A DNA stretch of 64,000 nucleotides from Yuukianura sp. NJ FZ-2021. Taxonomy: Eukaryota. The stretch's first letter is position 1, and every line of letters begins with the position of its first letter. Below the pieces are notes generated by a model. That model saw only the letters and a program-made list of their open reading frames with translations. It had not been told where the DNA came from and did no database searches. The position numbers were made by a program, and so were the translations under genes. Shown piece by piece: positions 14,815 to 41,900 of this stretch. The stretch lies in the NCBI GenBank assembly GCA_046563655.1, contig CM102287.1, positions 7,316,001 to 7,380,000 on the forward strand, written 5' to 3'.

Positions 14815-17800
14815 TCAATTAGTTGGTGCTGACTTATGAAATAGAAATCTATCAGCGAACGCTGGTGTATCACATTGGAGTGTTTTATAGTCTTTGGTCC
14901 AGGAGAGCGTAAAATTAAAGTCTTTGGCAAACCACTCATCGGAAAACTGTTGATTGAGTCTCGAGTAAAAGTTCTGGATGTCAAATCTCTCAGATGGAAT
15001 CAGCTGTGTTATAAGTTCAGGAAATTTCTGGAGCCATTTTAAAGAAAAGTAGAATGACAAACTTCTTCCAGGAGTTGGTGATCCAAATATTAAATCCAAG
15101 TCTGGCGTTTCATTGAATCCTTGATCTTGAATCCTACTTTTAGTCGTATCGGATGGCTCGGACTCAGCACTCCACGAATGTTTTTTCCGTAGTTTCTTGG
15201 AAACGTTTGGACCAATCGGAACTTCATTGATTTCAAACTTTTGAATCAGCTTTTCAAGGGCTTTGACTTCATCGCTCAAGGTCACTTGAGACTGGCCGTC
15301 TGCATTTGAAGCCGTGCCTACTGATGGTGTCTTTAATATTTTCAGTGACTTTTCCTTGTCGTCAGTTCCAACAAACTTAATACTTGGCGAATAGTCGACT
15401 CCAGTTTTCTTTTGTTCTTCCAATAACTTGTCCAGTAGTTTTTCCAAAGTTGTCATTTTATCCACCAGAGTTCCGGTTAGTTTCACTTCACCAGGTCTTG
15501 GAGCAGGACATGTTTGAGATGAAGGTTGCATGAGTTGCATAAACGACGACTTGTCACGTTGGCAATAAGATGATGATGTGGTAACTGTCCCTGTTGTGGC
15601 ATCGTCAAATGTAACTTGCAGATCAAGATCTATTCCGTCAAGTATACTGGAAACAATAGCCTGATTTGAAGGTTTGACTCTTATTTGTTGACCAGTTTGG
15701 ATCAGCTGTGGCGGTGAATCTTTCATAGGCGATATTTGGGTAACCGTGGCAGTACCTATGGAATTCGCCTCTTTCGCAACTACTGTCTCTGAAGATGAAG
15801 ACACTGAAGCGTCTTCTGTTTTCCGTAACTTTGCAGCTTTTCCACGCCCATGAAATTTTGGTGACGACCGGATTTCATCAATAATGGTGACTTCATCACG
15901 AAGTTCTTGTTCCGTGACTCCAGTGCAACAGTGAAGAGCTGACGGATCAATTGGATGTGCTTCGGTATTAAAAATATATCCACCAGCATAGACGGTGCAC
16001 TGACCTAAAGGATTTTCAATTACTGTGTATTCGTCTCCGTCATTGTGAATGAAGTTGGTAGGATCAAAGAGGAGATACAAGTATTTGATTGTTTCTGCCA
16101 AGAAAAACGACTCCATTCTGTCTTCCAGTGTAAGTGACGTAACGTCTCGGACCTAGAAAACATAGTGCTTGTGAATACAAAAGTTTGGCCAGCAATAATT
16201 TTAACGGAACTGCTTGTGTCTTACCGTGGCAAATCCGCAATCAGTTTTCATTGTGGTTTTAATGCTTCGTAAGATGTCTTCACCGATTTCGAGCATATAG
16301 GGATCTCCAGTAGCTCTGTACAAATACATCGCTGATTCCACAAGCTCTGGCCTCAGAGGATATCCTTCTCGCATACTAGTCGACTTCCCCTGAGCAATAA
16401 ATCAAATTCATCAAATTACTGACGCATAGCCAATGAAAAGAGATTCAAGTACACCACGTTTACTTGTAAAATATTGTACAGTTCCGGCAGGGCTCCATAC
16501 TGCTTCCAAATTCGATGATAGTTGGCAATTGCTTTCAATGCCGGTCGAAATTTACCAACTAAAGACAGAAGTCCTGGCCAGTAGGATTCCAGGCTAAATT
16601 AATAGATTCAGAATTAAAGATTAACGCCGTTAGAAGCGTAACAAAAATGACACGAAAACTCAGAAAAAACAGAAAGACGCCGGAAACGGGAAAATTGATA
16701 CCTTTGAAAAGTGGCAGTTGAAACATGGCCGTGGCCCATCGTGGCCCAGACATACCACCCACCTTTCCCAAGATGCTTCTCGATTGCGTCAAAACTCACT
16801 TTGAACATGTTCATTAGTTCCGGTCTTTGGAGTAGGATCCCGCCTTTGACTAAATACTCGAAGAACGAGTCCACACCAGCGCCGATTCCCGAGTCAACTG
16901 CAGTCCACTTACCCGTATCCGTGTCAATGTGATTTCCAAAAAGATTGAGTTTCGACCTCTTAGAATACAGTGAATGGACTGCCCGGAGAGCAACCTATTT
17001 CCAGGAAATCATAAATTCCTGATGAGAAATAACATTGAAGCAGTGATTTCGCTAAAAATGATTGATTTAGCTTTCACTTTCTTACTTTTTCGTAAAGTGG
17101 ATCACCGGTCAAGCGTGATAAGGCTCCGAACTCAACGAGAAAGGTTCCAACACCGGCAGTACATGTGACGGGAGTTTCTTTTGCTGGAACGCCGTATCTT
17201 AAGTTGACTGTTCCAAATGGCATACCGGTTTTGGTATCAAATGCAGGCAAAAGCTTGCGGGCAACTTTTTCTGCCAAGTGAAGCAGTGGACCGTTGCATG
17301 GCCAGCCTTTCTCCACGTCTATGCCTGCTCTGCAATATGGAAAATGTATTTCAGGGTAAACTAATTGCAATCTAAAAGGAAATTGTGAAAGAAAGCAACA
17401 GCCTGAATATCAGAATATTATTACCCTTACTTGTGGCTTAGCAAATGCGCACTGAGCAAACCACCAATTATCCTAATGTTTGTTTCAAACACGGAGACGT
17501 TGATATTCAAGTCAAACTGTGTGTTATCGATGATGAGCTGCGTCACTCTTCTGAATTCTGAATAATTTCCTAAAATTGCCAATGTATCCAAAGTGTCAAT
17601 AAGTGTCAGAGAGTAACTGAAATAGAAGTGGATAAGAAATACGTTATAAAATCAACTTACTTTCTCAATATTAAAACATAATCCACTGGTATCCCCATCA
17701 ATTTACCTTCCCCATGTGTCAAGTCCATCGCAGGACAGTGGGCGTAATTCATCAAACGGATAAGCATTCTGCATGTAAGAATCGTATGCATGGTAGAACA

Positions 17801-18019: not shown

Positions 18020-18708
18020 CACTAATAAATAGACGGTAGTAGAAGTTAGGCACAAAAAGGAATTGTCCTAAATACGGATGTATTTTCCTATTTTCATATC
18101 AAATCTGACAAATCAAACAAGAAAAATCGTTCGCGGTGGTGTCCGTATCGGTATTGGTATATCCCTGTTCTCTTTTACTTTTAATGATCACTTTATTATG
18201 ATATTCAGCATTTTCTGTGGAAAAGGGGGTACCCTCTCATTCGGGCGTGGCTAAATATCGGATATCGGACTCCTCGGATCTTACATGAGAGGGGTGCACT
18301 GTGCAGTCGTCCCTCGGACTTTTAATATGGACGCGGAAGGGGATATGTTTGGTTACCAAACAAAACCATTGAAGTTTGTAACCTCAAATAATCTGAATGA
18401 GGTCAATTGTCAGTTTGGGTCAAATTGTTGGACGGTAGACCGACTACTCAGGTGTGATTTTTAAAAATCCGCAGCGGAATCCGGTACTCGTACCATTCTT
18501 CCGAGAAATCCGAAATCCGACCTTTGGCCATACCCCAAAAAAGTATTTCAGAAGTTTGAATTTTTGAAAGTTTTTTGTTTCATTTTAAATTGTTTCTTTT
18601 TGATTTCCCACTCTTCTTGACTCTTGTTCTTTTAATTTCATTCCAGGTAACGTTCACAGTCATCCAACTCCGTTTGCCCTACAATTTTTTGGCCAAATCA
18701 GCTACAAA
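18020..18708. promoter_or_regulatory. Bidirectional promoter region EDEM2(-)/GLE1(+)
   Basis: Divergent start codons about 700 bp apart. Confidence 0.45.
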
Positions 18709-20821
18709 ATGGTCGGTGATTGCAAAATAAATACTTCCCCAAATCTACTGCAACCGCAGCCGGCCCCTTATACAGAGAGGTACTATTGAGTATCATCGTG
18801 TGCATTAAGAATCCAAATTGCTTTTCACAAGGACTGCTTTATTATTACAGAGTGTGAACCGTATAACCGATGATTGATAAGATAAACTTATTTAAGCGTT
18901 CTCTTATTTTATAGAATGTTTCTGAACCGACCACGACGCGGATATGGAATCCGAGATGTTGACGGCGAGTACAATGACTTGGCCGACATTGTGGCTTTAT
19001 TTACCCAATCACCAGTTCATGCCCATGTCAGCAAGCTGTTGGAAATAGCCGAATCAATGAAGTTAGCGAAAGCCGAGTCAGCAGCAATTGCTAAAGCTGA
19101 AGCCTGCGTCGAACAGGAACGTCAAGAACATCTTAAAAGTATCGCAAACCAGAAGATTTCCAACCTCCGTCTTGATGAAGAGTGGAATGCATTTCAACAA
19201 AGAGAAGAGGAGAAGACAGCAAACGTTTTTAAGCAATTAGAAGAACTACGCCGGAGACAAAAAATTGAAGGTGATTTATTGGACAAAGCCCTCTCGGCTG
19301 CTAAGGAAAATGTTTCATTTGAAAGAAGGGAACTTCAAGACGCGGAGCAAACGGCACTCGAACTTCAGAAGAAAGCTGCAGATGAAGCGTTGGAGAAACT
19401 AGCACTAGAAGAGCAAAAACGAAAAATAGAATTCGAAGAGGCACAGCGACGGGCACTTGTGGAAAAGCTTGAGAGGGAGGCTGTTGAAGAAAAGTTGAAA
19501 GCAGAGAAGGAAGCGCTTGAACTTCGAGCTAAACAGCAGGCAGAGATCCTGAATGCTGAAAAGGAAAGACTGGCAAAACTTGAAGAAAGTAGACTGCAAT
19601 CGAGACGCGTTCCGCCTAAAATTGGTTCTATTCCTTCAAATGACTCTCTTGTGCCTTCGGAGTTTCAAGGATGTATTCATTACGATGATCTTCGAAAATA
19701 TTCAAAATCACAAGACCTGTTAGAGCGAATTCAAGAACAGACGAAGCATATCACCAACACATCCAAATTTTACAGCAGTGCAATTAAAGTTGTGAATGCA
19801 CCACTGAACCAAATCACTGCGCAGACCCAAACTAAAATCAGTCACTTTACTGATCTCTTGGAAGGGAAGAACGTCAATGCTCCTGGCCTCTCTACACAAT
19901 TTTCAGTGACACGTAAATAATTTTTCCAAAGCTACAATTCTGTAATGTTATGTTTGTTATTCATTATGTTTAGTATGCTATACTTTTTATGTTTTAGTTG
20001 AAAAGAAGGGAGATCTCTTCGTCAAGAATCTACTGGCATTTCGCTTTGTGAAGAAAGCAGAAGCTGACATAAGTGAAAACAAGTTGAAAAGAGAAAACCT
20101 GAATTACTTGGCAGTCGTTGGCGTATCTCTGATCAAGAAATTTCCAGACCTAGGAGAATTAATTCAAGCCCACTTTTACAAGGCGTGTCCATTCCTAGTG
20201 CCTTTCAGTTATCCGAGAAACGGAATGGACATTGGAACGTATGCAGCAGCGATTGGTCATAAAATTAACATTGGCGACAGAGACAACAAGGCATTGGAGG
20301 CTTCCGTTACTCAAACACTGCTGGACAAGCTCTCTGGGTTAGCTTGTACTTTGATACTTTTTGTTAACATATTTCGAAATCATTCTAAATCAAACTGTTA
20401 TTTTTGCAGATATTGCATTCTGTATGGATTCATGGTCAGGAATATGTGCTCTCAGTCGATGACAGTGAAAGGGAAGCTACCAAATTCCTTTTTCTCTTTG
20501 AAAGAAGTTTGGAGAATTTTGGCTACAATCGTATCCTTGGGTAAGAGATTCTAGAAAAGGGATCTTGAACAAGCAAGAATTTTTGTTACTTTTGATTTGA
20601 TTTTTCTTATAGAACCGCAAGACGAAGTCACTGCTACAATATTACAAAGTCTTCTTGAAATTTTTAACGAACTGCTTGCGAAAAACTATGGAGCTCAGTT
20701 CAAGAAGATGCTGAAATATATACGGACTGTATATGTAGAAAAGATTCGTAGTGCCACTTCCAAAGGAAAAACTGGATCTCTATCAAGACTGGAATTACAA
20801 CTGGAAAAGTCGACAAAGTAA
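18709..20821 (+). CDS. GLE1: mRNA export factor / nucleoporin GLE1
   Basis: A long E/K/A coiled coil is followed by GLE1 domain motifs FPDLGELIQAHFYKACPFLVP and C-terminal YGAQFKKMLKYIRTVYVEKIRSATSKGKTGSLSRLELQLEK. The first exon 18709-18779 splices in frame. Confidence 0.85.
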
Positions 20822-21091
20822 CCACACCTTTAAAGATCCGTGACTTCGTTATGCATGACGCTGGACATCCATCTGAGCTGAAAACGAATCAGATAAGCCT
20901 AATCGTAATCAAAGTTATCTAAGGAATCCAACTACACTCTCCTTCGGTCTTCCATTCCTGAAGTACCATACTTGGATTTGTAATTCAGATGTGCATTTTT
21001 TATTCGTTGACGATCAGAGTAAATTTAGCATCTTTTTCAAATTTAAGTTGATGATGCGTGCAAATTATCTTGTTGCTTGTTTAGTTTCTTT

Positions 21092-21794
21092 TTAGTTTAG
21101 AGTCTTGCTCTGTGGTGGATCTTTTTTGATGAAGTTGAGCTTCTTGAAACAGAACTTGGTAAATTCCCAAAAGTTTGAGAAGATCTGAAACATAGCCTGC
21201 GCTCCATTCATCCCGATGCGAAGAATTGCCACCATTTGGACAGTTAACATGACCTGCTGGACTGAGTACACAACTTCGTTGTCGCTCCAAGTAGTTTTTC
21301 TGGTGCAGGTGACTGTCATGGTCGTGTTAATTCCTTTCCCAATGTCACCGTCAAATTCAAACGTACAACACAGCGTCCCGCACAGCAGAATCAGGGCGAT
21401 GAGATTTGCATAGACCCGGGCCTACATTTTTAAACAACGAAATAAGTGAACTAAATTGGATTTGTTAGTTAATTTTTGCAACTGTCTTTGAATTTCAGAT
21501 CCTTACGGTGTAAACATTGCAGGTTCTGTTTTGCGGGTGTGACAGGATAACATCGATGTCGAATTTGAGCATGGCAAGGAGGAGTAAGAGGAAGACGAAG
21601 AGGCGGGAGTTGTCGGTGGCAAGGTCAGTGAAAACTAAGAAGCAGCCAGCGATCTTGCCCAGCGCAGCAAATCCAAGCAACATTGCAAGCTCGTATACCT
21701 GGGGGTTCAATGATTACGTTAATATAACGCATTTTAAAACATTTCTATTTGGATTGAGACTTACAAAAGCCTGGTCTGCTGCTCCTAGGACCAT
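21092..21794 (-). CDS. Orphan multi-pass membrane protein, paralog 1 (3 exons)
   Basis: MVLGAADQAF|VYELAMLLG...TCNVYT|ARVYANLIALI...LRIGMNGAQAMFQIFSNFWEF...; canonical phase-0 GT-AG introns and several hydrophobic segments. Confidence 0.7.
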
Positions 21795-22302
21795 GGCTAC
21801 GATGAATCCAGTGGAGAGTACTGGCGACTTGACGAAAGCTCTGGAACTCGGAATTCCTAGAAGCGCAAGCGGAGATGCTTCTGCCTTCTTGTGCGTGTAC
21901 TTTTGAAATGACCTTTGAAAAACTGGAAAGCTAAGCCAAGCATCATCAAGTGAAAAACAACAAAGCATCTGCTCTTGTTTTCAATAAGGATTCGCGTTGT
22001 CATGATGACAATTTATTTACTTTTAGTAATCAATGTGAAATTAATTTTTATTATTTAGCAAACTTTTTTCTTGGACTAGTAAGCATCAATCTTAGTAGAT
22101 CAAACTTAAAAGCGTTCCAACAAAGATTCCAAATGACTTAAACTTGGATTTTATAAATCAGAATTGTTTTATTTTGACTTGTTTTTCGAGATCAGTAAGT
22201 GTTTCGAGTAAATTTTGGACAAAAATTCAAGTCATACTAGGTCATGCAATATTCGTAATCTTCTAATTTGGAATTTTCTCATTTGGTCCAGTTTTGGCTT
22301 GT

Positions 22303-22913
22303 TTAGGCGAAAGTCTCCCAGACGTTGGTGAAAATTGCGAACAGACCTTGCGCTCCAGTGATCATGACGCGGAAAACGGAGAGACTAAGAATGCTGATCA
22401 TCAAGTTGCCGAATAGAATCGCAACGGGATTTGAACCCCAGGAGCAATTGGCGGTCGTTGTGGACGTGTTCACTGAATGTTCGAAGCGACAGCTCTGGGC
22501 CAGATGAGCGGAGAAAGTCAGCATGACGACCAAGTTTGTAAAGAATCGCATCTATAATACCATCAAAAAGTCAAAAAAGTTGGATTTAATTTTGATTTTT
22601 TTTTATTTCAGATGCTTTTACACTGTACACCGACGCAGTTGTGTTCCGGGGATTGGCGAGGATCAGATCGATGTCCAGCTTGATCGTGGCCATGATGACC
22701 ACGAGGAACCAAATGGCAACCAATCCGACCAGGTCTGCAAGATCCAGAATGTAGCGAACCGTCATGTCGATGGTGGCAATGCCAACCAAAATTCCAAGTT
22801 CGTAAGCCTAAAAAAGGTCAAAAAATTGTTTATCATGCATTGAAGTTAAAGCTTTTTTAAGCATTTGGATTTGGATTGACGCTTACGCTGCACTGTACTG
22901 CTCCGGAGATCAT
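22303..22913 (-). CDS. Orphan multi-pass membrane protein, paralog 2 (3 exons)
   Basis: MISGAVQCS|AYELGILVG...KLDIDLILANPRNTTASVYS|MRFFTNLVVML...FRVMITGAQGLFAIFTNVWETFA*; aligns by eye to paralog 1 (KFDIDVILSHPQNRT). Confidence 0.72.
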
Positions 22914-24667
22914 TTTCGTTTCTGCGATCAATCAACTGGAAAGTACTGCCGACGTGATAGAAGTTCAGGAAAACGAAGTTTGATAAAGAGGGATGATGCT
23001 GGAGACGCTTCCGTCTTGTCTACTAAAGTGGCTTATTGACTTTTGAAAATCTGAAGAGTGCTATCGAGCGAGTCATCAATGGAAACAAAAACATAGCAAC
23101 GTTTTTTTCCGTAAGCATTCCCGTTGTCATAGCAATTAATTTGATAATTTTGATAACCAATTGGATAATTAGCGAAGATGTTTTTTTAAAGTCGCTCAGG
23201 TCCATGATTGTCTAAAAATAGACGATGAGAGTGATGCTGATGCTGACAGTGATGCTGATGTTGGCAGTAGTGCTGATGCTGCCACTGGTGCGAAGGGTAC
23301 TTCGAAACAAATGGTGAGTTTCAGATTTCAATTTTTTAGAAGATCTCCTCGAAGGGACGGAAGTTGGATTATCCGCTGTTCTTTTTGTGTAACTTCCGTT
23401 CTAAATTGTAGCCTAACCTTAGCATAACCTTAAAAAACTAATGAATCCTTGCAGTAATGAAGTCCATGTGGACCCTTAAGGGCTCCGAACTTAGAAAAAA
23501 GATTTGGAAAAACGCTTTGGATTTTATGGACTTTTTTGAAATTTTTTGTAGCTCCGTCTTCCGTTCGCTGGAAATGATTTAAAATGGATCTTATACCTAA
23601 GGATCATCCGTTTCCTGTGTCCTCGTGCCCCCTGTCACTGCAGATGATGACGAAGGGCAGCTGTTGAATGGAACTGTCTAAAGTCTAAGGGTCTTCCAAG
23701 GGAGCCCTTAAGAACAAAACCAAGCAGAGGGTGAACGTGAACCTTCCCATTGTTGGCTCACCCTCATTGTTGCTTCTTTGGACATTGTTCGGCTGGACCC
23801 TTAAGGACTTGTTGAGCACGAGCCAAGCCAGAAGCAACAGGCAGCATCCCTTAAGTCCTCCTCCAACTCTCAGCACATCTGCCACTTTCTTCTTCCAATT
23901 TTCAAAAACTGGATCTTAGAACAGCTTGGTTTTAATTTGAAACTTTCAAATTAAGGTCGGTCCACACTCCTCTTCCAGCAGCGTCTCGGAAACTGTGCTG
24001 GTAAAATAAGTTTCATTGCAGTATTGCTGATCAAACGAAAAACTAGCCTTAACCGAGCACTTTGGTTTAGGTTAGTTCAATTTTTAAGTGAGTTAGTTAG
24101 GTTTAGAATCAAAACAATAATAATTATTGTCTTCTTGGAACACAGAATCTACCATATTGGCCAAGCTTAGTATTTGTCATTGTCATAGGCGGGTGCATAT
24201 GAAACGGCGTCTTGTGTCTACACGACCCAATTGATTGCGGATTGTGATAACACTTCATCTTACAAACAACCACAATCACCTCACCACTTTGCAACTTTGA
24301 GATCGTATGTTAATTTTAGTAGTAGTTTGATATTGGAAAAAAAAATTTATTGCTTATCACCTCACCACTGCTGTTTGTGCTTATATTGTTTTTTTGTTTT
24401 ATCAATTCAGCAGACTTTTTAGATTTTGTGGGTTCGTCTTTCATCTGCCTTTCACACAGAACAAGGGAACATTAGAAATTCATTAGGAAATGGATTTAGC
24501 ATAACACATCTTCTCAACAATATCCTAACTTTGCAACTTCAACATTGGAAATTAGCGGCAAAAACTGCAAGCAAAAAGTTTCGGCTGGAAAACTTACTGA
24601 ATCAGTCGAACAAAGGACCTTGGAAAGAAAACAATAGACGTGGGAAAGAATTAACTCTAAATTATTG

Positions 24668-25588
24668 ATGAAGAAAATGACTCACACGCCAAACAACAGT
24701 ATTTATGCGGATAATCCAAGTAAGTTTTTAAAAAATTTCAGAAATTGTTTCAAAATTTCAACTTTTTATGAATTTTTGACTGCCGGGCTACACATTTAGT
24801 CAACGCAAAGTTGACGTTGGTCGTCGTCGGATACACAGACTCCGGCGAATGTCATTGGCTATTGAAGGAACTAATTTACTAATTGAACAAACTTTTTTAT
24901 GCTAGCTACTACGGATATTGAGATTTCGATGTTACCGTCGTCGCCAGACTTTACACCCACTTCCAAGAAGATTCGAACTCCAGCTGTAGCTAAACTGCGA
25001 TCCTGGACTACACGTCGTGGCTTCAAAGTATCTAACCTCTTCCTTACCGTTGCCATTGGAATTATCATTCTCATTGAAATCAAGATCATGTACGAGACAA
25101 CTCGCACTTACAACGAATCCCTGGTCAACCAGCTGAGTCAAAAGAATGAAATGCTTGAAAAGGCACTGATCAACCTAACGTCAAGTCACAAAGACCGAAA
25201 CGAACTGCTGGACAAACTACTTCGGCTCAACGAAGACTTCAAAGTGGATGCTATGAATCGATCGGAACATCTCGAAGACAGGATTGAAGAGACACAGCAG
25301 CTTGTGATTCAAATGGCTAAGGAGAACAAGTTGATGTACGACACTGGAGAAAAGAGTTTCATGGATACGCTTAAACTTGTTCGTGAAGCACTGACGATGA
25401 ACACGAACACAGTCATTCGCCTATTGGATGAAAACAGTGAGATACAGAACAAGTTGCGGGAATTGGAAGAAAATGTTGGAGCGACCCGTCGTCGCAAAAG
25501 TGCTGCCTGGGGTAACAGTTCCTCCAAATCTACTGCCAGTATGGCCGCCATTTTGGTCGTGATGCTGGTTAACTTCTTGGCCATTTGA
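24668..25588 (+). CDS. Type II TM - coiled coil - predicted GPI-signal protein (tetherin/BST2-like topology); exons 24668-24719 and 24906-25588
   Basis: The upstream exon MKKMTHTPNNSIYADNP splices in frame (A|CT). The protein then has a basic juxtamembrane segment, a hydrophobic LFLTVAIGIIILIEIKIMY stretch, about 130 aa of heptad-like ectodomain, and a C-terminal GNSSSKSTAS spacer followed by hydrophobic MAAILVVMLVNFLAI*. Confidence 0.75.
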
Positions 25589-25885
25589 GTTGCAAACACA
25601 AAGTATTCCAGGTACTTAAGGTTATGGTGCGTGTTATGTTGTTTGCTGAAGATCTTGCTTTCCAGTCAAGTTTCATTGGCTTAAGTTTTAGTGTAATTTA
25701 AGTTCAAAGTAGATTAATTTTGCGTTATTAGTACTTTTTACCTTTACCTAATCGTTTAGGTTAGGTTAACATACGAATTTAATCTGTAACATCAGTTAAA
25801 AGTTGTAATAAGAAAACAAAAACAAAAATTCTTAAGTTAGTCGAAACTGAAACGATTTTGTTTTGTGTGGCTCAAACTCAAAAGT

Positions 25886-27467
25886 TCAAATGTTTGGAAT
25901 CCCAACTTGGACGTGCGCTTCAATTCCGCACTCGTTGTGTCCTCGACGAATTCTGAAGAATCCTTTCTCACCTAAAATTCAAAAATTTCAAAATTTCGAA
26001 CAGTTTTCCAATTTCTAGAGCTTTAGTATAAGTTCCGAATATGGTTTACCGAAATCGTAGTTCCACGAATTGGCAATCGTCCAGTAAGGAGCGCCATTTT
26101 CTTCTCCCCATCCGATGATCTTGATCGCATGGCCACCTAAGTAACTTCCAGCGACATGACGGTAGATTCCTGGAGAAGTGTTGAATTTAAAAAAAAAATA
26201 ATAAGTTTTTAGCAGATTTTAAAAGCTTTTTTGAAAAGTGTTGAAAAGGTTAAAGTCCAACCGGATTTGTAAGAGAGAAAGTCTTGGTAAACCCAGAACG
26301 CTGCGCTGACGGGTCCATTTTTCATGATTTCAGTTTGAATTTGTTCAACTTGTCTGGATATGGAGTAGGAAGTGTTGCCATAATGAAGATCGCTTTTGTA
26401 TGTCACTGGATACTGCGGTTGGCAATCCTTATGACACTTTGGTGTCTTCACAGGCTCGGTACAGTTGACACGATCTCCAGACGTGTGATGTTCGCAAGGC
26501 GGGATTTCATAGGGTTGGCATCCCTGCAATAATTAACATAACCATGATTAATTTTTGGTCAACTCCCGAATTCAATTGAATTAAAAGTGCTAAAAATTGT
26601 TGCTAACTAAATTGTTACTTGGCTTGAGCCGTAAGGACCTCCACTGACAATTCCATGAGTTTCAAAATATCTCCAGGCACTTGACAACATGCCACCATTG
26701 CATCCTGAAATAGAAATCAGCTTGAAATTCTTAAAAAGTCACAATTGAAAAAAAATAGTTTCTTTTTTCTAAAAACCGATTTTTTTTTACTTTTTAGAAA
26801 CGTTTGAACTCACCCATTGCACAAAAAAGAAATGGACAACAAGCCATCAGGTTTTCAGCAGAAAATCGGAATTGCTTCGTCCCTTTGCTTACAATGCAGT
26901 ATCGGTCAGTCATCGTTTCCGTAGTCTAAAATTCACAAAAGTGAATTCACATTTGGGAGTTGGGTGGCGGTGGGACCAAAACACAACATATAAATTCAAG
27001 TTAGCCTTCAAAATAACTTACAGCAAATGCCCAACACGATCCGCAAGACCCTTGATCCCGAATTTCCTTGATTGACGGACAATTTGGCCATTTTGTCCTA
27101 GCATCAAACTCTTTTGGAATATGAAGCCCTTGGAGACTGTGTGTCTTCTGGGGCAATCGGAGATACCAAGGTTCGTCCAGGGCTCCCATCAGTCGTCGGA
27201 TGTAAATCATGCTCGTATTGGCAGGGAAGTTTCGTCCAGCCTACAAAAAACTTATGAAATCATCTGTGGACAATTTGAAGCTACTAGCTAAGAGTGTGAT
27301 TAACTTACTTTCCATTGTGGTTTGAGTTGATTGATGTGATCAATCATTTGATCTGAAAGGGGATGAATTCCCATTACATTGTACCTGCCCGGGAATCTAC
27401 TGATTTTTGCAAGTCCAAGTGCTAATAACGATGCAAAAACGATCAAAAGTGTTGTCCACTGCATCAT
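25886..27467 (-). CDS. CtsB: Cathepsin B (C1A cysteine protease)
   Basis: Signal peptide, propeptide [40 protein letters not shown], occluding loop [22 protein letters not shown] and GHNECGIE. Confidence 0.95.
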
Positions 27468-28717
27468 GCACTTTTGGGAATCTGGAAATAAAGTGTCTAA
27501 ATGTTGTGAAGAACGAGAACAAAAATCTGTTCTTCACTTCTTAGATGTGTGGTTTTTACAATTTGAACCAAATTCGTTTTTTGTTATTTATAAAAACGGA
27601 GAGGGTTGGTTTTGGTTTTGTAAGGGGTGGAAAAAGTCTGAAAATAAAAATCCAACGCAACGCTGTGCATCAGAGAAAAGACAAAGAGCAGATTTCGAGA
27701 CGCAAACAAGCAACTGTTTTGAGTTTTGAAGAAAATTGCCCGTTTTATTCATTTTAAGTGGAAGGAAAGAAATGAAGATGACTAAGCTGGATGTGAATGA
27801 TGACCTTTGTCTTGACTGTTGATCTTATTTGTGAACTTGTCAGTCCTCTATTGCGAAAGTTACATTTTTGTGAGACGATAGTAGAGGTCAACAAAACATA
27901 TCCACACATCCCATCAATTGTTACTTTGAATCTAATCTTCCATTTTGCTCAATTTACTTGTTTCTGGATACAAGCATTTTAGATGTAACCTCCACAGCAA
28001 ACAGAACATGGAACTAATGATTTCATAAAGTTTATTAAACATAAACACTCGTGACTCGTCACAGTTAAGAGTTCAATGGTGACACGCCATTACATACAAT
28101 GCAAGTAAAAATGTACACAAGGATTTCGAAATTAGCCTAATAAACTGCTGTTTGGGAATGGTGATGAAGGTCAAGCGAGGTGATGGTCATTCGATGTATT
28201 CATCAGCAGCGCAGTTTATTCATCTAAGTGCGAAAATTGAAGGAAATGGTGACACTTTCAATTTAAATTGAAAGGAAATAAATAACTATTTAAATTAATT
28301 ATTATTTATAGAATATTTGTTAGGAGGGGGATGATTTACTAAACTGTTGGCTATTTGAATTTGGATGTTGGTGGAAGGAATGGCCTATGGTTCCGTCTTT
28401 ACAACAATGTTAATGTTAGGTATGTATGTATGTAATAGTTAGTAAGTTAACTTACCATCAAAGTCAGGTTAATTTCTGTTAGTAAAGCGTGATTTTAATT
28501 GGAATTCATCTGAAAATTTGCTGTGGCTTGGCTGGCTGTAGCGTTGATATTTTTTGTGGTGTTTACTTTTTGAGCTGTTTCCCGTCAGTCTGTTATTTCA
28601 GAGGATTAGTCCATTGGTAAAGAATTGTCTCAGTCCTGTTCAAAAGTTTAGAATTGGAGCGCGCTAAAGATTTGAATTATCTGTTTGTTTTGATTTTTGT
28701 TGTTTTTTTTCTGTCTT

Positions 28718-29885
28718 TTAAGGACGTGTGCTATGCGTCTAATTAACAGCAGTTCTTAAATTTAGTTACCACGATAACCGAACTTGTGTAGTTAGTAAAA
28801 GTTGCAGACATCGACAAGAAGAAACACTCATGTGAAAAACGATCAGTGCAAAGATGATCAAAAAAGTATGAACTTTCAAACAAACAAAATACTGACTCAA
28901 GTTCGGTTGCCGTCGTTTGGGTTTTGTAAATAAGTTTTCTGAGGCTGCGACATTGAAAATGAGAAATCGTGGGGATCAGCGTAGGAAGGTCGTACAATGA
29001 CCCACAATATATCAAACTGTAGGAAAAGACTGGATCTAGTTTCTCGCTAAAAAAAAATTACAAAATTTTAGTTGTAACTGTAAAAAAAATGGACCCAAAC
29101 ATTCCACCTCCATATTTACATAGATGGAACTAAAACTTTGTAATTTTTTTTTTGCGAGAAACTAGATCAAGTCTTTTCCTAAAGTTTGATATATTATGGG
29201 TCATTGTATGATCTTTCTACGATGTCCCAGATCATTTTTCATTTCATGTGTTACAGCGGCATTTTGACCCCCAGTTTCCAGGGTGTCCGCACACCTTAAG
29301 GACGTGTGTTATGCGTCTAATAAACAATAATCGTTAAATTTAGTAACCACGATAACCGAGTTTTTGCAGTTAGTAAAAGATGCAGACATCGACAAAAAGA
29401 AACACCGTCGTGAGTGGTGAAAAAGGATCAGTGCAAAGATGATCAAAAAAAGTGGGCACTTTCAAACAAACAAAATACTGACACAAGTTCGGTTGCCGTC
29501 GTCTGGGTTTTGTCAACAATTTTTCTGAGGCTGCGACATTGAAATTGAAAAACGGTCTGGGTCAGCGTAGGAATGTCATACAGTGACCCACAATGTATCA
29601 AACTTTAGGAAAAGACTTGATCTAGTTTCTCGCAAAAAAATTTTTTCAAAATTTTAGTTGTAACTGTAAAAAAAATGGACCCAAACATTCCACCTCCTTA
29701 TTTACATAGATGGAACTAAAACTTTGTAATTGTTTTTTTGCGAGAAACTAGATCAAGTCTTTTCCTAAAGTTTGATATATTGTGGGTCATTGTATGACCT
29801 TTCTACGATGTCCGAGATCATTTTTCATTTCATGTGTTACAGCGGCATTTTGACCCCCAGTTTCCAGGGTGTCCGCACACCTTAA
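28718..29885. mobile_element. Head-to-tail dimer of a ~580 bp non-autonomous element bounded by TTAA (units 28722-29295 and 29300-29881); Kolobok-like
   Basis: Both units begin GGACGTGTG and end GTCCGCACACC. TTAA occurs at 28718, 29296 and 29882. Each unit has an internal inverted repeat of about 70 bp. The copies are similar but diverged. Confidence 0.7.
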
Positions 29886-30200
29886 GTTAAAATGAGGAAA
29901 GTTGTTTTTAGATTACAAAATTGATGAATTAATTGAAGTGAACTGCTGGTCGAAAGAGGTAAGTTGTAATTTGTACTTTTGTTGTTATATTAGTTAAGTA
30001 CAGCATTCTTAACGCTTGTTATCATTGGGTGACTTGGGGAGGGGCGATGACAGCAAGCAAAAAAAGTAAAAAAGAACAGTAGAATGCGAAGAAAGATTAA
30101 ATCACGTTTGATTTGCTTGTTTTAGGTCAATCAATCAGGTTCAGAACTTTGAATTAGAGCAAGGACTTAGATCTTCCAGCTCCGGAAGTGGAGGAGAATT

Positions 30201-33200
30201 ATGGAGATGGAAATTGAATACACGCCTCCAGACACAACTGCAGACATTACTGCTGCGGTTAGGAAGAATGTGATATCATCGGAAACAAAAGTTGTCACTT
30301 GGGACTGCAGTGAAGTTTTCAATCGGTTAACGCCTCGGGAGAAGCTTTACGCACATTACATGAGTAAAGCAGCCTGGTATGGAGCGCTTATTATTCCTGT
30401 TCAGGTAAATATTTATAACTGGATTACTACAGTTCTACCGCTGTCATTATCGGCTTGTTACAACTTTTTACTTACTAATTAACGTTTCTGTTTTTGCAGA
30501 CATCTCCGGAGTCTCCAGTCATCTTTTCTCTCCTCTTTGATTTGTTCAAAACGAATACCATTGCGCGTAAGTATTTCGCATTGAGTCGATAGTAAACTTT
30601 CTTAAGTTTTCATTCAAATATTCATTCATACTTGTTTTAGGTGTGAAAGAAATCGCTGTTGATCACTGTTTCTTTTGGGAGGATGACTGGCAAGTAAGAT
30701 AAATATTGCGAAAATTCTTACGTTACAGGAATTCCTGCTGTGTAATGCCTTCTCCACGTTTAGGATTTACTAATATACACTTGTGGGATCTTTTCTAACG
30801 GTGGAAATTATCTTGGATCTGGCGACACAAAGTTTATTCCCGGGTTATCTTTGTCGAAGTTTGGTTCTCTCATTATGAACCGACACATAAAATTTACTGG
30901 AGACGACGCTCGTCAGAAGTGGGAAGTGGTGAAGGATAAGCTGTACTCTTTGAACGATGGTGAAAAGCAACTTGGTTTGTGGAACAAGGTTTGATTCCGA
31001 ACCTATTCAAATTACGTTTTTTACTTTTACATCTATGACTGCATAATTTTTCAGGGAGTTACAACTTATTTCACTCCGAATTGCACACCGCAGGATGTTG
31101 CGCTTGTGGATCGTTTCATGGTTGCTTATTCACGGAGTCATCTCAACACCCGTGTCTTCAAGCACTTTCCGAATCCCAACCCAACGTTCACAAGCAACAA
31201 ACCTAAGGATACAAAATACACCCTCTACGAGGTTAGAACGCGGCATTTAAGTTAAATAATTTAACTATACTTCATTTAGTAATTTGATGGCCAGTTTTGC
31301 CAGTAATGTTTCTTCTTTGAATTCGAATTCAGGTGAGAACTGCTTCTGTTGCAGGCGATCCCTATGGCTTCAAATATTCCCCTCACTACGACTTCGAAGA
31401 CACGGAATTTATCATTACGAGGTGTGACTATGTCCCAATGTTGAAAGACGTTCGCCACTGGTTGTGTCGAGCCAAGGAGTTTTCTGCCAATGATCATCAA
31501 AGGGACATGGTCGAGGAACTTCTCAATACATTTCATTCTGGAGAAATTGAACAACACAAGGAAGCCACTCGATATTGGCTACGAGACAAAGACTCCAATG
31601 TCGAAGCGTAAGAATTTAAATCACACTCAAGTTTTTATTTTCTCTGCTCTATCGAAATACTTTTATCTATGTTTAAGTTGATATCATCATTTGTTGCACA
31701 GGTACTTAGGATTTGTCGAAACTTATCGTGACCCGGATGAACAGAGAGGAGAGTTTCAAGGATTTGTACTTATAGATGACCCCGTTTTGAATGACATTTT
31801 GGACAAGATGGCATATCACTCGAAAGAGTTCCTAGCCAAACTCCCCTGGCCAAAGGAATTTGAACGAGAAGTTTTCAAAAAACCAAACTTCAGTGCTAAA
31901 GAAGCCCTTACGTATGCAGCCAGCTCCATTCTTGATTCCATCAACGTTCCCAGTTGTATGACTTTTACTAATTTTCTTTTCTGAAACTAGATATCTGAGC
32001 CATTTTTATTTCATTTTTTTTTCAGATCCTGATATCCGAGTGAAAAATGGTTTCAAGAACTTTGCACTTGAGAAAGTTTCTCGATCTCTCTACGAAGGAT
32101 CCAAAATGTCTTTTCTGTCAAAGGAGGACACGAACCTCTACAACCGATATTTCGTCCAAGCACATAACGTGCAACTCTGTATTCACGAAATTCTTGGTCA
32201 TGGATCCGGAAAGTTATTCGTACGCAATCGAGATGGGACTACGAACTTTCCACGCGAATTACTCAATCCAATCACTGGAACACATGTAAGCTCTTTTGTA
32301 TTAACAATATATAATTTATTATTATACGTTCGGCAATTGGCAATAAATGATGCAAGTAATTTTGGATTTCTGGACAGATTGATTCCATGTACGAGATAGG
32401 GGAAACGTACGACTCCCTGTTTCCTCCTGCTCTGGGAGGTTCAATGGAAGAATGCAGAGCGGAATGTGTCGGATTGTATCTATCCCTTGATGATGAAGTC
32501 CTCAAGTACGAAGTTTCGTGTAATGATTGCGTAGCATTTGATATAAATCTCAAGTATCTGTAATTTAATTTTGTGTCCGTAGGGTTTTCGGCTACGAAGG
32601 AGAAGAAGCAGAAGCGATTCGGTATGTCAACTGGCTGGACTTCGTTTATGCTGGACTTGCCATTTCATTACGGAGCTACCTTCCAGGTACGACATTTTAA
32701 GCAATTAAGTTGTAATTCAGCAGACATTTTACAATCCTGTTCACAATTTCAGATGTTAAGCAATGGCGGGACGTTCACGAACACGCCAAGTTTGCCATTC
32801 TTCGAGTATTAATTGAGGCTGGGGAAGGACTGGTTACAATTGAGCAAGTTCTTGACGAAGATAATGAACCCGATCTGAGAATTACGCTTGATCGAAGCAA
32901 GATTCAAACAGTGGGACGGAAAGCCGTTGGCGACTTGTTGGTGAAACTTCAAGTGTACAAAGCAACAGCTAATGTTCAGCATGCTCAGCGTCTCTATCGG
33001 AAAATTACGGCTGTGAATAATAACGGGCTTTACCCATGGCTCCAGTGGAGACAAATTGTAATGAAGAAAGAAGAAGTTCAGCGCTTGTTTGTCCAGCCAA
33101 ATACTTTCATAACTGGTAATTCTTCCTTTACACAAAGTTCATCGTATGTGAAGTATTATTGTTAACTGATTTGTTTGATTTCTGGAAGATGAAAATGACG

Positions 33201-33361
33201 TGAAATTGGCGGTGTACGACTCCACATTTGAGGGTTTCATTGAATCCTGGCTAGATCGTTATGATGACAATGATTCGTTCCCACCATCGCTATATGATCA
33301 ACTGGACGAGTGCTGGCTCAGGGACAAAATGCATTTCTTCCCAGAACACACCAATATCTAA
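30201..33361 (+). CDS. DPP3: Dipeptidyl peptidase III-like metallopeptidase (M49)
   Basis: LTPREKLYAHYMSKAAWYG, GNYLGSGDTKFIP, YLGFVETYRDP, HEILGHGSGKLF (HExxGH), MEECRAECVGLYL and LFVQPNT; multi-exon. Confidence 0.9.
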
Positions 33362-33842
33362 TTGTTTATTTACAGTTTACAGTTTTTTTTAATTCTATAC
33401 AAGTTTGACCATTTTCAAATTAATTTTTAAGTCAGAGATTTATGATTTATTCTTTTTGATACATGACATGACCCCGAGAGTTAGACGACTGAAATTGACC
33501 TCAAGTTCAACATTAAAGGAAAACGACAATTTTTACTTTACTTATGCAATTTCACTAAACTTTAATTTTACTTCCTTACTTTATGTCTGCCAATTGCTGT
33601 AATCTGTATCCAATTCATGTGTTGGTGTTCAATTTGTCCAGGCGTGGAAATTGCGATAAGCCGGTAGCGGGACTCAACTTCGGGACTTTTGAAAGTGTTT
33701 TTGATTTTGTTTTGTGCATGTCTACTTTTCCATTTTCGTGTAATTTCATGATCTTCTCAAGTTCAATTAAATCAAAATCTCCCAGTTAATCGTTTCTTTA
33801 TCATTAGCGGAGCTCGTTTTAGTATCGAAAAGTGGAATAAGG

Positions 33843-35427
33843 ATGGGAATACATGGATTAGCTAAGGTGATAGCGGACGTAGCTCCAGCAGCGATCAAGG
33901 AAAATGAATTGAAAAACTACTTCGGTAAGGAAAGGATAACCAACCGGTGTGTTTTTGGATGGAATGTCACCAATAATTGTCTTTCCTGATTGTTTAGTAG
34001 GATTGTTGACATCACTAATATTTTGATTGGTTTTTACAGGCAGAAAGATTGCCGTGGATGCTTCGATGTGCTTGTACCAATATTTGATTGCCGTAAGACA
34101 GGAAGGGGCTCAGCTTCAATCGACTGATGGTGAAGTCACATCTCACCTGAGTGGTTTCTTTTACCGAACCATTCGATTAGTCGAAAACGGACTCAAGCCT
34201 GTCTTTGTATTTGATGGGAAGCCACCGGAAATGAAGAGTGGAACACTGGAGAAACGGGCTGAAAAGCGTGCTGATGCTCAAAAGGTGTGAATGATTTGTT
34301 CAATACGAATTTTCGCCCGTTACTTTTGAGTGACTTGCTATATCGCTTATCGTAGGCATTAGATGAAGCTCTAGAAACAGGAACTGGAGAAGATGTCGAA
34401 AAGAATGTCCGAAAACTTGTCAAAGTCACAAAGTCTCACAACGAGGAGGTTAGAAAACTGTTGGGTTTGATGGGAATTCCTTGCATTACGGTAAGTATCG
34501 AGTCAGTGCAATGTGTTTGTTCCAAGTTTGATTTCCTTATAAAGTTTTCATGGAATGCATTCGTTGTCTTTTAGGCTTCATGTGAAGCCGAAGCTCAGTG
34601 CGCTGCTCTTCAGAAAGCGGGCAAGGTGTACGCCGTGGCCACTGAGGATATGGATGCTCTCACGTTCGGCACCAACGTACTCCTTCGTCATACCACATTT
34701 AGCGAGGCTCGGAAAATGCCAATCAAGGAATTCCATCTGGACAAGACGCTCCAGGCCATGGAATTTACCATGGAGCAAGTGAGTGGATTTTATTCATACT
34801 AATGAGTATTTTTATGTTGGTTTCATCAAACTTTTTTGTTTCTAGTTCATCGATCTCTGTATTCTACTGGGATGTGATTATTGTGACAGTATCAAAGGGA
34901 TTGGCCCGAAACGGGCAATTGAACTCATCACGAAACATCAAACGATTGAAAATGTCATTAAGAACTTGGATGAGAAGAAATACCCCATTCCAGAAAACTG
35001 GCCGTTCGCAGAAGCTCGTCGTTTGTTCACTGAACCTGACGTCGCAGATCCAGAATCATTCCAAATTACATGGAGTGCTCCTGATGAAGAGGGACTTGTT
35101 GCCTTCATGTGTGGTGAAAAAGGTAAAAAACGTGAATCCAAATCACAAAATTGTACAACTTCTTGATTTTTGATTACATGCAACCAGAATCGGTTTATCA
35201 ATTTATTGCTTTTCAATACAGGATTCATGGAGGAGAGAATCAGGAACGGAGCCAAGAAGCTTCAGAAAGCTCGACAGACATCAACTCAGGGAAGACTTGA
35301 CACGTTCTTCAAAGTTTTGCCGTCCACTCCAGCCGCTAAAAAGCGACCGTCTGAAGAAAAGAAAGAGAATCCAAGCAAAAAGTCCAAGAAAGCTGGAGGC
35401 GGAGGCGGATTTCGCCGTGGAAAATGA
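33843..35427 (+). CDS. FEN1: Flap endonuclease 1
   Basis: [12 protein letters not shown]...[54 protein letters not shown]-box QGRLDTFF and a basic C-terminus. Confidence 0.97.
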
Positions 35428-38958: not shown

Positions 38959-41900
38959 CTATCCCTTCTGGTGCAGGGTTTGAATTACTCCGCCAACTGC
39001 CGGAAGTGTCGAAGTACCCATAAGGAATTCATCCACTTCCCGTGCCGCCTGTCTCCCTTCAGTGATTGCCCAGACTACAAGGGACTGACCCCTTCGACAA
39101 TCTCCAGCAGCAAATACCCTTGGAACTGATGTAGAGTACTTGCCAAGGGGTGTGGCAATGTTTGACCTTGGATCTTGAGCCAGCTCCAGTTCAGCTATGA
39201 TTCCTTTCTCTGGACCGAGGAATCCCATTGCAAGCAGAACCAGATCACACTTGTATACCTTCAAATCCACAAATTATTATGATTGTTAGTACTGTGATCG
39301 TTTAGTTAAAGTTTAGTTTTCAGTCAAATTTGGTTAACATTGAAATTTTAAAATTCGAAAATTTTTGTGAAATCTTTTGTTTTACCTCTTCGGATCCTGC
39401 TACTTCCTCCATTTTCCAGCGTCCACAACCATCCCGTTCCCAGAAAACTTTCACCGTGCGAATTCCAGTCACTCGGCCATTTTCTCCCAGGAATTCCTAA
39501 AAAGTTTGAAATTTTTAATTTTTAATCTACTAAAAAAAATAGTAGTTTTATGTTTATTTTGTTGACGTGGTTGTGTTAATATTGCTTTTACTTTGCTCAA
39601 TGTGTTGAATTTTCTGGGATCATGACCCGTCTTGACCTTGACTTCCTCATGCCCATAGTCAACCTTGAAGGTTCTCGGCCACTGAGGCCATGGATTATCG
39701 AAGTCTCTTGTCGCTGGTGGATCCGGCAGAATTTCAAAAGTAACAATTGACTTGGCTCCTTGTCGCAGTGAAGTCCCGATACAGTCACAACCGGTATCTC
39801 CTCCTCCAATTACTGAAAAGAAGCGATAAAGCGATTGTGTAACTGGCATTAATAGGAAGAAATTCTTTACTTTGAAACCAAATTTTTACCAATGACGTTT
39901 TTATCCTTTGCTGAAAGTGGAAGATGGTCAATGGAGTTGCCCATTTGTTTCTTTTGCCACTAAAAATTTAAAAACGATGCGAAATTTTCTTTTCAAATTC
40001 AAATCTGTTTTTGAACACTTACGGTCTCCAGAAAGTTCATTGCGAAATGGATTCCTTCGAATTCGCGACCAGGAATTGGCAAATCCCTTGGCCACGTAGC
40101 ACCGAGACTTAACAGCAAAGCGTCATTTTCGTCATGCAGTTTTTTGGCACTCAAATCCTTTCCCACATTGGCGTTACACACGAATTGAATTCCTTCTGCT
40201 TCCATTAGCTTAATGCGACGCTGGACAACGGTTTTACTCAACTTCATTGTTGGAATTCCGTATTGCAGAAGTCCCCCAGCTCTGTCGTTTCGTTCATAAA
40301 CAGTGACCTGGTGACCTGCCTTGTTCAACTGATGTGCAGCCGCTAGTTTCCAAAAAAAAAGTTCCAATTTTTGAATTTTCTTAATAAAATTTTGAATTTT
40401 ATTGAAACTGTGTTCCATTTCAGAAGCTCACCTAATCCAGCAGGTCCACCTCCAACAACTGCCACTTTCTTGCCAGTTCTGAACATCGGAAGTTCTGGAA
40501 CTATCAAGCCTTTTTCAAAAGCGTTGTCAATAATGGCACACTCGATGTTCTTGATGGTAACTGCAGGTTCGTTGATTCCTAGGACGCATGCGCCTTCACA
40601 AGGTGCTGGACACACTCGGCCAGTGAACTCTGGGAAGTTGTTAGTTTGAAGTAATTGGGCCAATGCTTCGGTCCAATTGTTTTGATGAACCAAATCGTTC
40701 CATTTTGGAATAATGTTGCCCAATGGACAGCCGTGAGACGACTGACAGAACGGAACGCCGCAGTCCATACACCGGGCGGCTTGTGATCTCAAACCTACGC
40801 AACAGAATTCAAAAAATATCATTTGAAAAAATGTTTTCGAAAAATTGCTTCAGAAAAAATCTTAAAAAGGAAAGCACCAATCTTGTAATCCCAATCATGC
40901 AGGCAATCTCCAAAAATGTAAAACAATCGCCTTTCGGGTTCGAAAAATGTTCAAATGGAGTTTTACCTTTGCGAACATTGGGAAAGTCGTAGATTTCGTC
41001 CCAGTCTTCCATTCGCTTCGATGCTGGTCTGTAAGATGACTTTTCTCGTCCATATTTCATGAACCCACGAAGTTTGTCTGGAACTGAATCTTCAATATCC
41101 TTGACCTTTGGTTCACTCTTGACTGGCTCGACTTTGGCCGCTTGCGGAATGACTCCATTCTTAGCTTTCAGGACTTTTTGATACTCAAATGGAAATACTT
41201 TGACGAAACGAGACGCTTCAGTTTCCCATTGCGACAGAAGTTGACTGGCAACAACTGAGCCAGTTTTAGTTTGAAATTCCTTTAACAAATCTTGAACGAC
41301 TTGCTTGTCAGCTTTGTCCAACATGACGAGCTCAATAGTTTCTGGATTGCATTTTCTGTTTCAAAAAATATGAAATTTAAAAAAAAGAAACAATTTTTTT
41401 TTTCGAAGTTGAGTTTGCTTGGATTTTGTTTCTACGTACGTCGGAAAAGCGGCGGTCGGATCGTACACGTAGGCAATGCCGCCGGACATTCCAGCTCCAA
41501 AGTTTCGTCCAGTAGGTCCAAGGATCAAAGCTAATCCACCCGTCATATACCTGTATTACGTATATCAGAATGTTACGTTAATTAATCTAATCTATATTTA
41601 TATTAATAAAATTATATTTATATATTATATTTATATTAATTATAAAGTATTACTCGCAACCGTGGTCACCAACGCCCTCTACAACCGCTGTAGCTCCAGA
41701 ATTCCGAACGCAGAACCGTTCTGCTGCAATTCCACGAAAGAAAGCTCTTCCGCTCGTAGCTCCGTAAAGACAAACATTCCCAACGATGACGTTATCTTCA
41801 CTTTTAAATTCGGGTGACATGTTTTTTGGCGGGTAAATTACGATTTCACCACCCGAGAGTCCTTTTCCAACGTAGTCATTTGCATCACCTTCCAAGGTGA

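Follow-up and report, generated by a model that had tools for sequence, protein, structure and literature searches.

The 64,000-nucleotide stretch of Yuukianura sp. NJ FZ-2021 DNA considered here (assembly GCA_046563655.1, contig CM102287.1, forward-strand positions 7,316,001 to 7,380,000; hereafter the window) carries at positions 24668-25588, on the plus strand, a gene whose predicted product shares its overall layout with tetherin (BST2). The product would found a small, lineage-restricted family of type II glycoproteins, in which a peptide anchor and a probable glycosylphosphatidylinositol (GPI) anchor hold the two ends of a rod some 20 nm long that serves a constitutive role in tethering, spacing or organising membranes. 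Taken as a whole, this reading is one in which we place middling confidence, and under it the tetherin-like layout would have been reached by convergence.

The gene is composed of two exons. Exon 1 (24668-24719, plus strand) provides the ATG, 17 codons and one further base, and ends in CAA immediately before a GTAAGT donor at 24720. Intron 1 (24720-24905, plus strand) is a GT..AG intron of 186 nt in phase 1 that ends in TGCTAG, and exon 2 (24906-25588, plus strand) holds the remaining coding sequence up to the TGA stop at 25586-25588. The spliced coding sequence of 735 nt remains in frame and encodes 244 amino acids. Two relatives lend support to this splice model, since the metagenome contig L002 has an intron at the equivalent position, again in phase 1 and with a GTAAGT donor, behind an upstream exon in which the N-terminal motif of the window gene is likewise encoded, and since the related protein P0002 is continuous across the junction of exons 1 and 2. 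The motif in question, M-x-H-T-P-N, is common to exon 1 of the window gene, P0002, P0004, P0005 and exon 1 of L002. Because the relatives begin with it, translation may actually begin at the second ATG of the frame (24677), in which case the product would have 241 amino acids. Judged from its coding sequence, 24668-25588 is a real gene, because it has five relatives at 33-69% identity and because non-synonymous change lies far below synonymous change. A separate observation concerns intron 1, where the summed contig depth over 24742-24776 is two to three times higher and the contigs of both DNA runs break into unrelated sequence on either side; this segment is probably a small dispersed repeat.

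The family comprises six distinct members, namely the window protein, P0002 (69% identical to it), L001 (59%, a locus that contains P0003), L002 (68%), P0004 (36%) and P0005 (33%). They were gathered by several routes: a word-indexed search gave two relatives among 237 candidates, an exhaustive phmmer search gave three matches at E <= 0.001 among 1,835,955,588 representatives, none of them named, a profile search gave four relatives among 8000 scored candidates, and a metagenome scan confirmed two loci from 556 pattern matches. The annotation of these relatives is 'hypothetical protein' at most. Scans of prokaryote genome contigs and of viral contigs produced 103 and 175 pattern matches respectively and no relatives in either, so that they give no sign of a viral origin. 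As the representative database includes many arthropod proteomes and the matches are nevertheless few, the family looks either lineage-restricted or too divergent to trace. Comparison of the six members with Pfam-A (hmmscan, E <= 10) found no family at or near the cut-off among the best 25 of 27 families; a sub-threshold match to PF19745 (FUT8_N_cat) appears in three of the six, with a best E value of 0.022. A sequence search of the Protein Data Bank (PDB) with a three-sequence profile returned five rows at E values of 0.36-0.9, none of them meaningful. Likewise, when the monomer model was compared by fold with the PDB, no match reached E <= 0.001, and the six weak rows, five to vimentin and one to an axonemal protein, reflect generic long helices.

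The case for a type II protein starts from hydropathy. The Kyte-Doolittle mean over 19-residue windows exceeds 1.2 only at residues 55-84, where it peaks at 62-80, and at residues 223-244. The first of these regions contains the predicted transmembrane signal-anchor (residues 59-79; 25028-25090, plus strand), which is highly conserved and bears a conserved E-x-K pair near its outer end. Before it lies a predicted cytoplasmic tail of 58 amino acids that carries conserved motifs, and in the alignment the part of this tail encoded by exon 2 (residues 18-58; 24906-25027, plus strand) shows a conserved motif, S/T-D-[IV]-E-I-S-M-L-P-S, and is basic next to the membrane. According to the positive-inside rule, the basic flank of a transmembrane segment faces the cytosol. 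In all six members the 15 residues before the segment include 2-5 lysines or arginines and 0-1 aspartates or glutamates, and the 15 residues after it include 0-2 and 2 respectively. Because of this basic excess on the N-terminal side, the N-tail is predicted to be cytosolic and the protein to have a single type II (N-in) transmembrane segment.

The same segment invites another explanation, namely that it is a signal peptide of unusual length that is cleaved off, which would make the mature protein an ordinary GPI-anchored protein with a single anchor. GPI proteins normally enter the endoplasmic reticulum (ER) via a cleavable signal, and long signal peptides exist. The window protein shares with ordinary GPI-anchored proteins a small-residue omega region, a short spacer and a C-terminal hydrophobic tail, by rule of thumb and in four of the six members. 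Such proteins have a cleaved N-terminal signal peptide, whereas the first hydrophobic segment of the window protein is internal, at about residue 59, and conserved; its hydrophobic core begins some 60 residues in, behind a tail with motifs of its own, and by eye no small pair at -3/-1 follows the core. Further, no other part of the protein is as well conserved as the segment and its juxtamembrane stretch (83-87% identity and dN/dS of 0.07-0.11 among the window protein, L001 and L002). A cleaved signal therefore appears extremely unlikely.

Beyond the predicted signal-anchor, the distribution of N-glycosylation sequons is consistent with the type II orientation. N87-E-S (25112-25120, plus strand) is present in six of six members, within an invariant motif. 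At N107-L-T (25172-25180, plus strand) all six again have a sequon, spelled NLT in three, NLS in one and NVT in two, and at N135-R-S (25256-25264, plus strand) four of the six do, as NRS, NQS, NRT and NRT. Further sequons occur at N221 (NSS) and at N9 in the tail. Because the sequons at N107 and N135 stay while their letters vary, the alignment suggests that glycosylation itself is under selection and, with it, that the rod is lumenal or outside the cell. These positions bear directly on an inverted topology, in which the N-tail would lie outside, the coiled-coil rod would be cytosolic and the C-terminal end would be a tail anchor, an arrangement that could bridge two organelles. Tail-anchored proteins, too, characteristically finish in a C-terminal hydrophobic stretch with no residues behind it, and many cytosolic proteins contain coiled coils; the window protein has such an end and a predicted coiled coil, and not one of its 244 residues is a cysteine. 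However, inversion would run opposite to the positive-inside rule in every one of the six members, the sequons at N107 and N135, kept with varying letters, speak against it, and hydrophobic tails of 14-16 amino acids with internal polar residues are short for a tail anchor. On this balance an inverted protein is improbable.

The predicted helical heptad rod extends over residues 80-216 (25091-25501, plus strand) and is drawn from AlphaFold2 models, the heptad score and a table of core positions. For the window protein AlphaFold2 gives one helix at residues 56-216, a disordered stretch at 217-228 and a second helix at 229-243, with a mean predicted local distance difference test (pLDDT) score of 69.8, mostly 70-90 in the rod, and a predicted template modelling (pTM) score of 0.27. 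For P0002 it gives helices at 54-104 and 107-214, separated by a two-residue break, followed by a disordered linker and a terminal helix, at a mean pLDDT of 64.0. The mean heptad register score of the ectodomain is 0.39, compared with 0.27 +/- 0.04 in shuffled sequences, and was reached by one of 300 shuffles. At the inferred a and d core positions the six members have leucine, isoleucine, valine, methionine or phenylalanine almost throughout, together with asparagines that are invariant in all six at positions 98, 158 and 194 (a) and 183 (d). A buried asparagine at 'a' is a hallmark of parallel, in-register dimeric coiled coils, and the invariant asparagines at core 'a' positions thus suggest that the rod forms a parallel, in-register dimer without disulfides. 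If the helix is straight, the 137 residues at 1.5 Å each would span about 20 nm. Identity within the rod is 66-74% among the window protein, L001 and L002.

At the end of the rod lies a basic cluster, RRRK (residues 212-215; 25487-25498, plus strand), which is basic in the four close members and includes no uniform furin-type site. It is followed by a flexible linker (residues 216-229; 25499-25540, plus strand). Small residues make up 12 of the 14 positions of this linker, compared with a fraction of 0.33 in the rod; its pLDDT stays under 50 and it is assigned no secondary structure. Within the linker, GNSSS occupies residues 220-224, G220 and N221 are candidate omega sites, and SKSTAS would serve as the spacer before a tail of 15 amino acids. 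This C-terminal hydrophobic tail (residues 230-244; 25541-25585, plus strand) has nothing after it and is a probable GPI signal. The pattern is not confined to the window protein. Hydrophobic C-terminal ends of 14-16 amino acids, with 0-2 residues after them, are found in four of the six members; in the four close members 8-12 of the 14 residues before the tail are small, against fractions of 0.33-0.39 in the rod, and rule-based omega candidates exist in all four. The linker is disordered in both AlphaFold2 models.

How this end evolves is what tells most about its likely nature. Over the last 34 or so residues the three pairs among the window protein, L001 and L002 share 12%, 14% and 52% identity, with proportions of non-synonymous differences (pN) of 0.39-0.72 and of synonymous differences (pS) of 0.78-0.88. 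Despite this low identity the tail is hydrophobic in four of four close members and keeps its length and position. Because the sequence drifts nearly freely and still stays short, hydrophobic and placed behind small residues, the C-terminal end is probably a cleaved GPI signal that is constrained in composition only. The chief competitor to a cleaved signal is that the segment is retained and either spans the membrane a second time or dips into it as a helix. The protein would then be an integral one held by two anchors, with its rod in a lumen or outside the cell, for instance a lumenal spacer of the ER, Golgi or nuclear envelope. The segment is predicted to be helical in both models, and the conserved E-x-K pair of the signal-anchor could pair with another helix. 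Against this, tails of 14-16 residues that include polar ones and end within 0-2 residues are short for a bilayer span, and the near-neutral drift of the tail would be odd for a helix that packs on so conserved a partner. The small-residue linker in front of the tail, moreover, fits an omega region. A retained segment is accordingly judged unlikely, while far from negligible.

Assembled, the double-anchor reading proposes the following course of events. The first transmembrane segment would insert N-in and leave the tail of about 58 amino acids in the cytosol, while the rod, outside the cell or in a lumen, would be N-glycosylated and would pair with a second rod as a parallel, in-register coiled-coil dimer that needs no disulfides. 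The C-terminal tail would be removed at about G220/N221 and replaced by GPI, so that the mature protein would be a rod measuring about 20 nm, fixed by peptide on one side and by lipid on the opposite one. Such a molecule would most likely be present constitutively and serve physically to tether or space, linking or organising membranes or their domains while binding specific partners. Candidate sites for these partners are the cytoplasmic motifs, the transmembrane helix and two motifs that are invariant in the rod. In its architectural part this agrees with an earlier note on the same DNA, which had read from the letters a tail, transmembrane helix, helical rod and GPI-like C-terminal signal. 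That layout is borne out in silico by hydropathy, AlphaFold2, the mean heptad score and rule-of-thumb GPI criteria. The NES, NLT and NRS sequons and a predicted type II orientation, the RRRK cluster, GNSSS region and terminal hydrophobic tail, and the absence of ectodomain cysteines, all of which the note had listed, were likewise found where described above.

Several observations weigh against the double-anchor reading and should be set beside it. The proposed function is read from architecture alone. The criteria applied to the omega site, spacer and tail are rules of thumb. The AlphaFold2 models were built on six sequences only and have pTM scores of 0.26-0.27. The best single 28-residue heptad window is not above chance, its score being reached by 38 of 300 shuffles, and the rod is divided among three heptad registers (about 81-132, 133-168 and 161-216). 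Nor is the length of the rod fixed: L002 (3001-3618, compared with window 25121-25255) is without 4 and 11 rod residues, in frame, a difference of about two heptads between species. Sequons very near a transmembrane segment may escape glycosylation, and the use of N87, about eight residues past the predicted end of the segment, is uncertain as it may be too near. Finally, P0004 and P0005 have no hydrophobic C-terminal end. The two agree up to an aligned glycine, diverge past it and stop after 6 and 20 residues respectively. Their ends may be mis-called; otherwise the second anchor is not family-wide. Since both diverge and stop soon past the aligned glycine, intron read-through is a candidate cause, and a splice donor would fit there if the glycine codon is GGT.

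It is natural to compare such a protein with tetherin. A protein that combines transmembrane segment, coiled coil and GPI anchor is described as extremely unusual, and the layout as almost unique to tetherin, whose ectodomain is a parallel coiled coil regarded as a 170 Å ruler and whose three cysteines mediate dimerisation, the loss of all three abolishing restriction (PMC3235769). A second paper describes tetherin as conserving topology and not sequence, and its orthologues as recognised by that topology together with a position between CILP2 and PLVAP (PMC10617486). The window protein resembles tetherin in its N-terminal tail, type II transmembrane segment, N-glycosylated helical ectodomain of similar length and GPI-type C-terminal signal, all of them predicted here, and its estimated rod of about 20 nm is comparable with the 17 nm spanned by tetherin (PMC3235769). 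The differences are nonetheless substantial. The tetherin family PF16716 is not among the Pfam matches of the six members at E <= 10 (best 25 of 27 families). The window protein has no cysteines and would thus form no disulfide-linked dimer, its cytoplasmic tail, which carries conserved motifs of its own, is longer by about three times, and its transmembrane segment and rod motifs are strongly conserved. Its neighbours are a GLE1-like and a cathepsin B-like gene and not CILP2 or PLVAP, and its host is an arthropod. Because sequence, cysteines and synteny all disagree, the window protein is not, on these grounds, a homologue of tetherin. It may still work mechanically like tetherin.

Other known systems offer partial parallels only. 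TMCC(aT)/CCDC194 and PLVAP likewise have a cytoplasmic tail, a transmembrane segment and an extracellular coiled coil, but these are vertebrate genes whose products are without a C-terminal hydrophobic signal and have no sequence match to the window protein. Type II Golgi stem proteins, of which the N-terminus of FUT8 is an example, share an N-in signal anchor with a coiled coil behind it in the lumen. The FUT8_N_cat matches, however, are far below the cut-off, and the window protein has no catalytic domain and ends in a hydrophobic tail. Among the papers that a full-text literature search brought up, none was on an invertebrate protein with a transmembrane, coiled-coil and GPI layout.

The earlier note raised the possibility that the protein is a convergent analogue of tetherin. 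On a mainly antiviral reading of this, it would trap budding enveloped virions, being anchored to the virion by one end and to the cell membrane by the opposite one. In vertebrates the layout suffices for restriction: an artificial protein with a transmembrane segment, coiled coil and GPI anchor restricts virus release (PMC3235769), and TMCC(aT) with an added GPI anchor restricts the release of HIV-1 (PMC10617486). The estimated length of the rod, close to that of tetherin, would also suit the task. The mode of evolution points elsewhere. Over the whole protein, pN is 0.20-0.28 and pS 0.76-0.81 among the window protein, L001 and L002, with dS saturated. Among the 10 coding-sequence variants listed from contigs of the two DNA runs, seven are synonymous and three non-synonymous (K113N, E117D and V131M, each of them where the rod is least conserved); these figures apply to the variants listed, beside which there are 32 further rows for the whole stretch. 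As a rate control, the cathepsin B-like neighbours in the window and in L002 share about 69% identity across 313 aligned residues, compared with 68% for the target protein in the same two genomes. On these sequence comparisons the gene is constrained and evolves at an ordinary rate under purifying selection, and this selection, along with a pace equal to that of the neighbour, gives it no look of an arms race.

Further points tell against an antiviral role. The invariant motifs are at odds with it, as is the presence of a single copy, no second copy of the gene having been found within the 64-kb window. There is no ectodomain cysteine, while tetherin is inactive after the loss of all three of its own (PMC3235769), and P0004 and P0005 are without a visible second anchor. 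A language-model feature search placed a BST2-like cluster nearest to the window protein, but its score of 0.76 is below the evidence threshold, and the search gave no usable match when repeated with P0002; it is treated as a non-result. A mainly antiviral job is consequently very unlikely. That the lineage independently evolved a constitutively made tetherin-type rod that holds either budding enveloped virions or its own vesicles at the surface is a slim prospect. The virion tether of the earlier note is thus left unsupported, and the dN/dS check that it had proposed revealed purifying selection and nothing resembling an arms race. Its search for relatives succeeded for orthologues, in the shape of the five relatives, and yielded no paralogues in the window. 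The note fares better in holding the protein unrelated to tetherin by sequence, and hence convergent with it, as PF16716 is absent from the matches described above. Moreover, homology to some known unrelated family, which it had named as grounds for abandoning the idea, was found neither in Pfam-A, for the six members, nor with phmmer.

The surroundings of the gene are those of a eukaryotic chromosome. About 300 bp beyond the target stop lies a convergent, multi-exon cathepsin B-like gene of the papain family (25889-27365, minus strand), recognised with tblastn and tblastx. It is the convergent partner directly downstream in the metagenome loci L001 and L002 also, so that the two form a conserved gene pair. 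Pfam matches identify, upstream, a GLE1-like gene (18886-20554, plus strand), and elsewhere a dipeptidyl peptidase III of family M49 (31962-33165, plus strand), a DM13-domain protein (59438-60484, minus strand), RMI1 (6309-7454, plus strand) and a fragment of a GH47 mannosidase (14815-16152, minus strand). A sugar transporter was also matched in the open frames of the window. Together, the Pfam matches of these frames indicate eukaryotic genes. Between the GLE1-like gene and the target, 21498-21722 has a weak translated match (31% over 75 amino acids) to positions 796-1020 of L002, upstream of the target in both, which hints at a further conserved neighbour gene without a Pfam match.

A large glutamate synthase (GOGAT) gene of at least six open frames occupies 39469-43637 on the minus strand. 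The top matches of one of its exons are arthropod proteins at 77-83% identity. When six frames, about 900 amino acids, were compared with proteins of up to 2000 amino acids, the best identities were 72-73%, to termite, moth, water bug, mayfly and shrimp proteins, with tick and mollusc proteins near 70% and no arthropod order clearly nearest. Within the proteins covered, the arthropod host thus has no near relative that is annotated. Gene density in the window is about one gene per 4-5 kb and the introns are short, which suggests a compact arthropod genome. Near the start of the window, in its most GC-rich part, two long open frames of 373 (minus strand) and 347 (plus strand) amino acids overlap in antisense at 2721-3842; Pfam gave no match for the 373-residue frame. 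The window was also scanned for Rfam families and tRNA genes, without a match. The kappaB-type motifs of immune promoters offer no hint, and their counts are weak evidence in either direction: GGGRNNYYCC occurs twice against 5.8 expected, both times at 8516, and GGGGATTYYY, with one mismatch allowed, 16 times against 26.7 expected, all of them outside 18472-34472.

Should the GPI prediction turn out wrong, the protein would be no more than an ordinary orphan, a type II membrane protein with a coiled coil. If the double-anchor reading is true, the family would be a second, unrelated one with the transmembrane, coiled-coil and GPI layout, in an invertebrate, and the design would have arisen more than once. 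Such a family would provide a natural test of whether the layout alone implies tethering, and should the antiviral or vesicle-tether reading prove true, double-anchor tethering would be a convergent solution outside vertebrates. Moreover, being conserved in sequence and free of cysteines, the family could reveal a non-immune use of double-anchored rods, such as the organisation of membrane domains or spacing at a fixed distance, a use that is still debated for tetherin itself.

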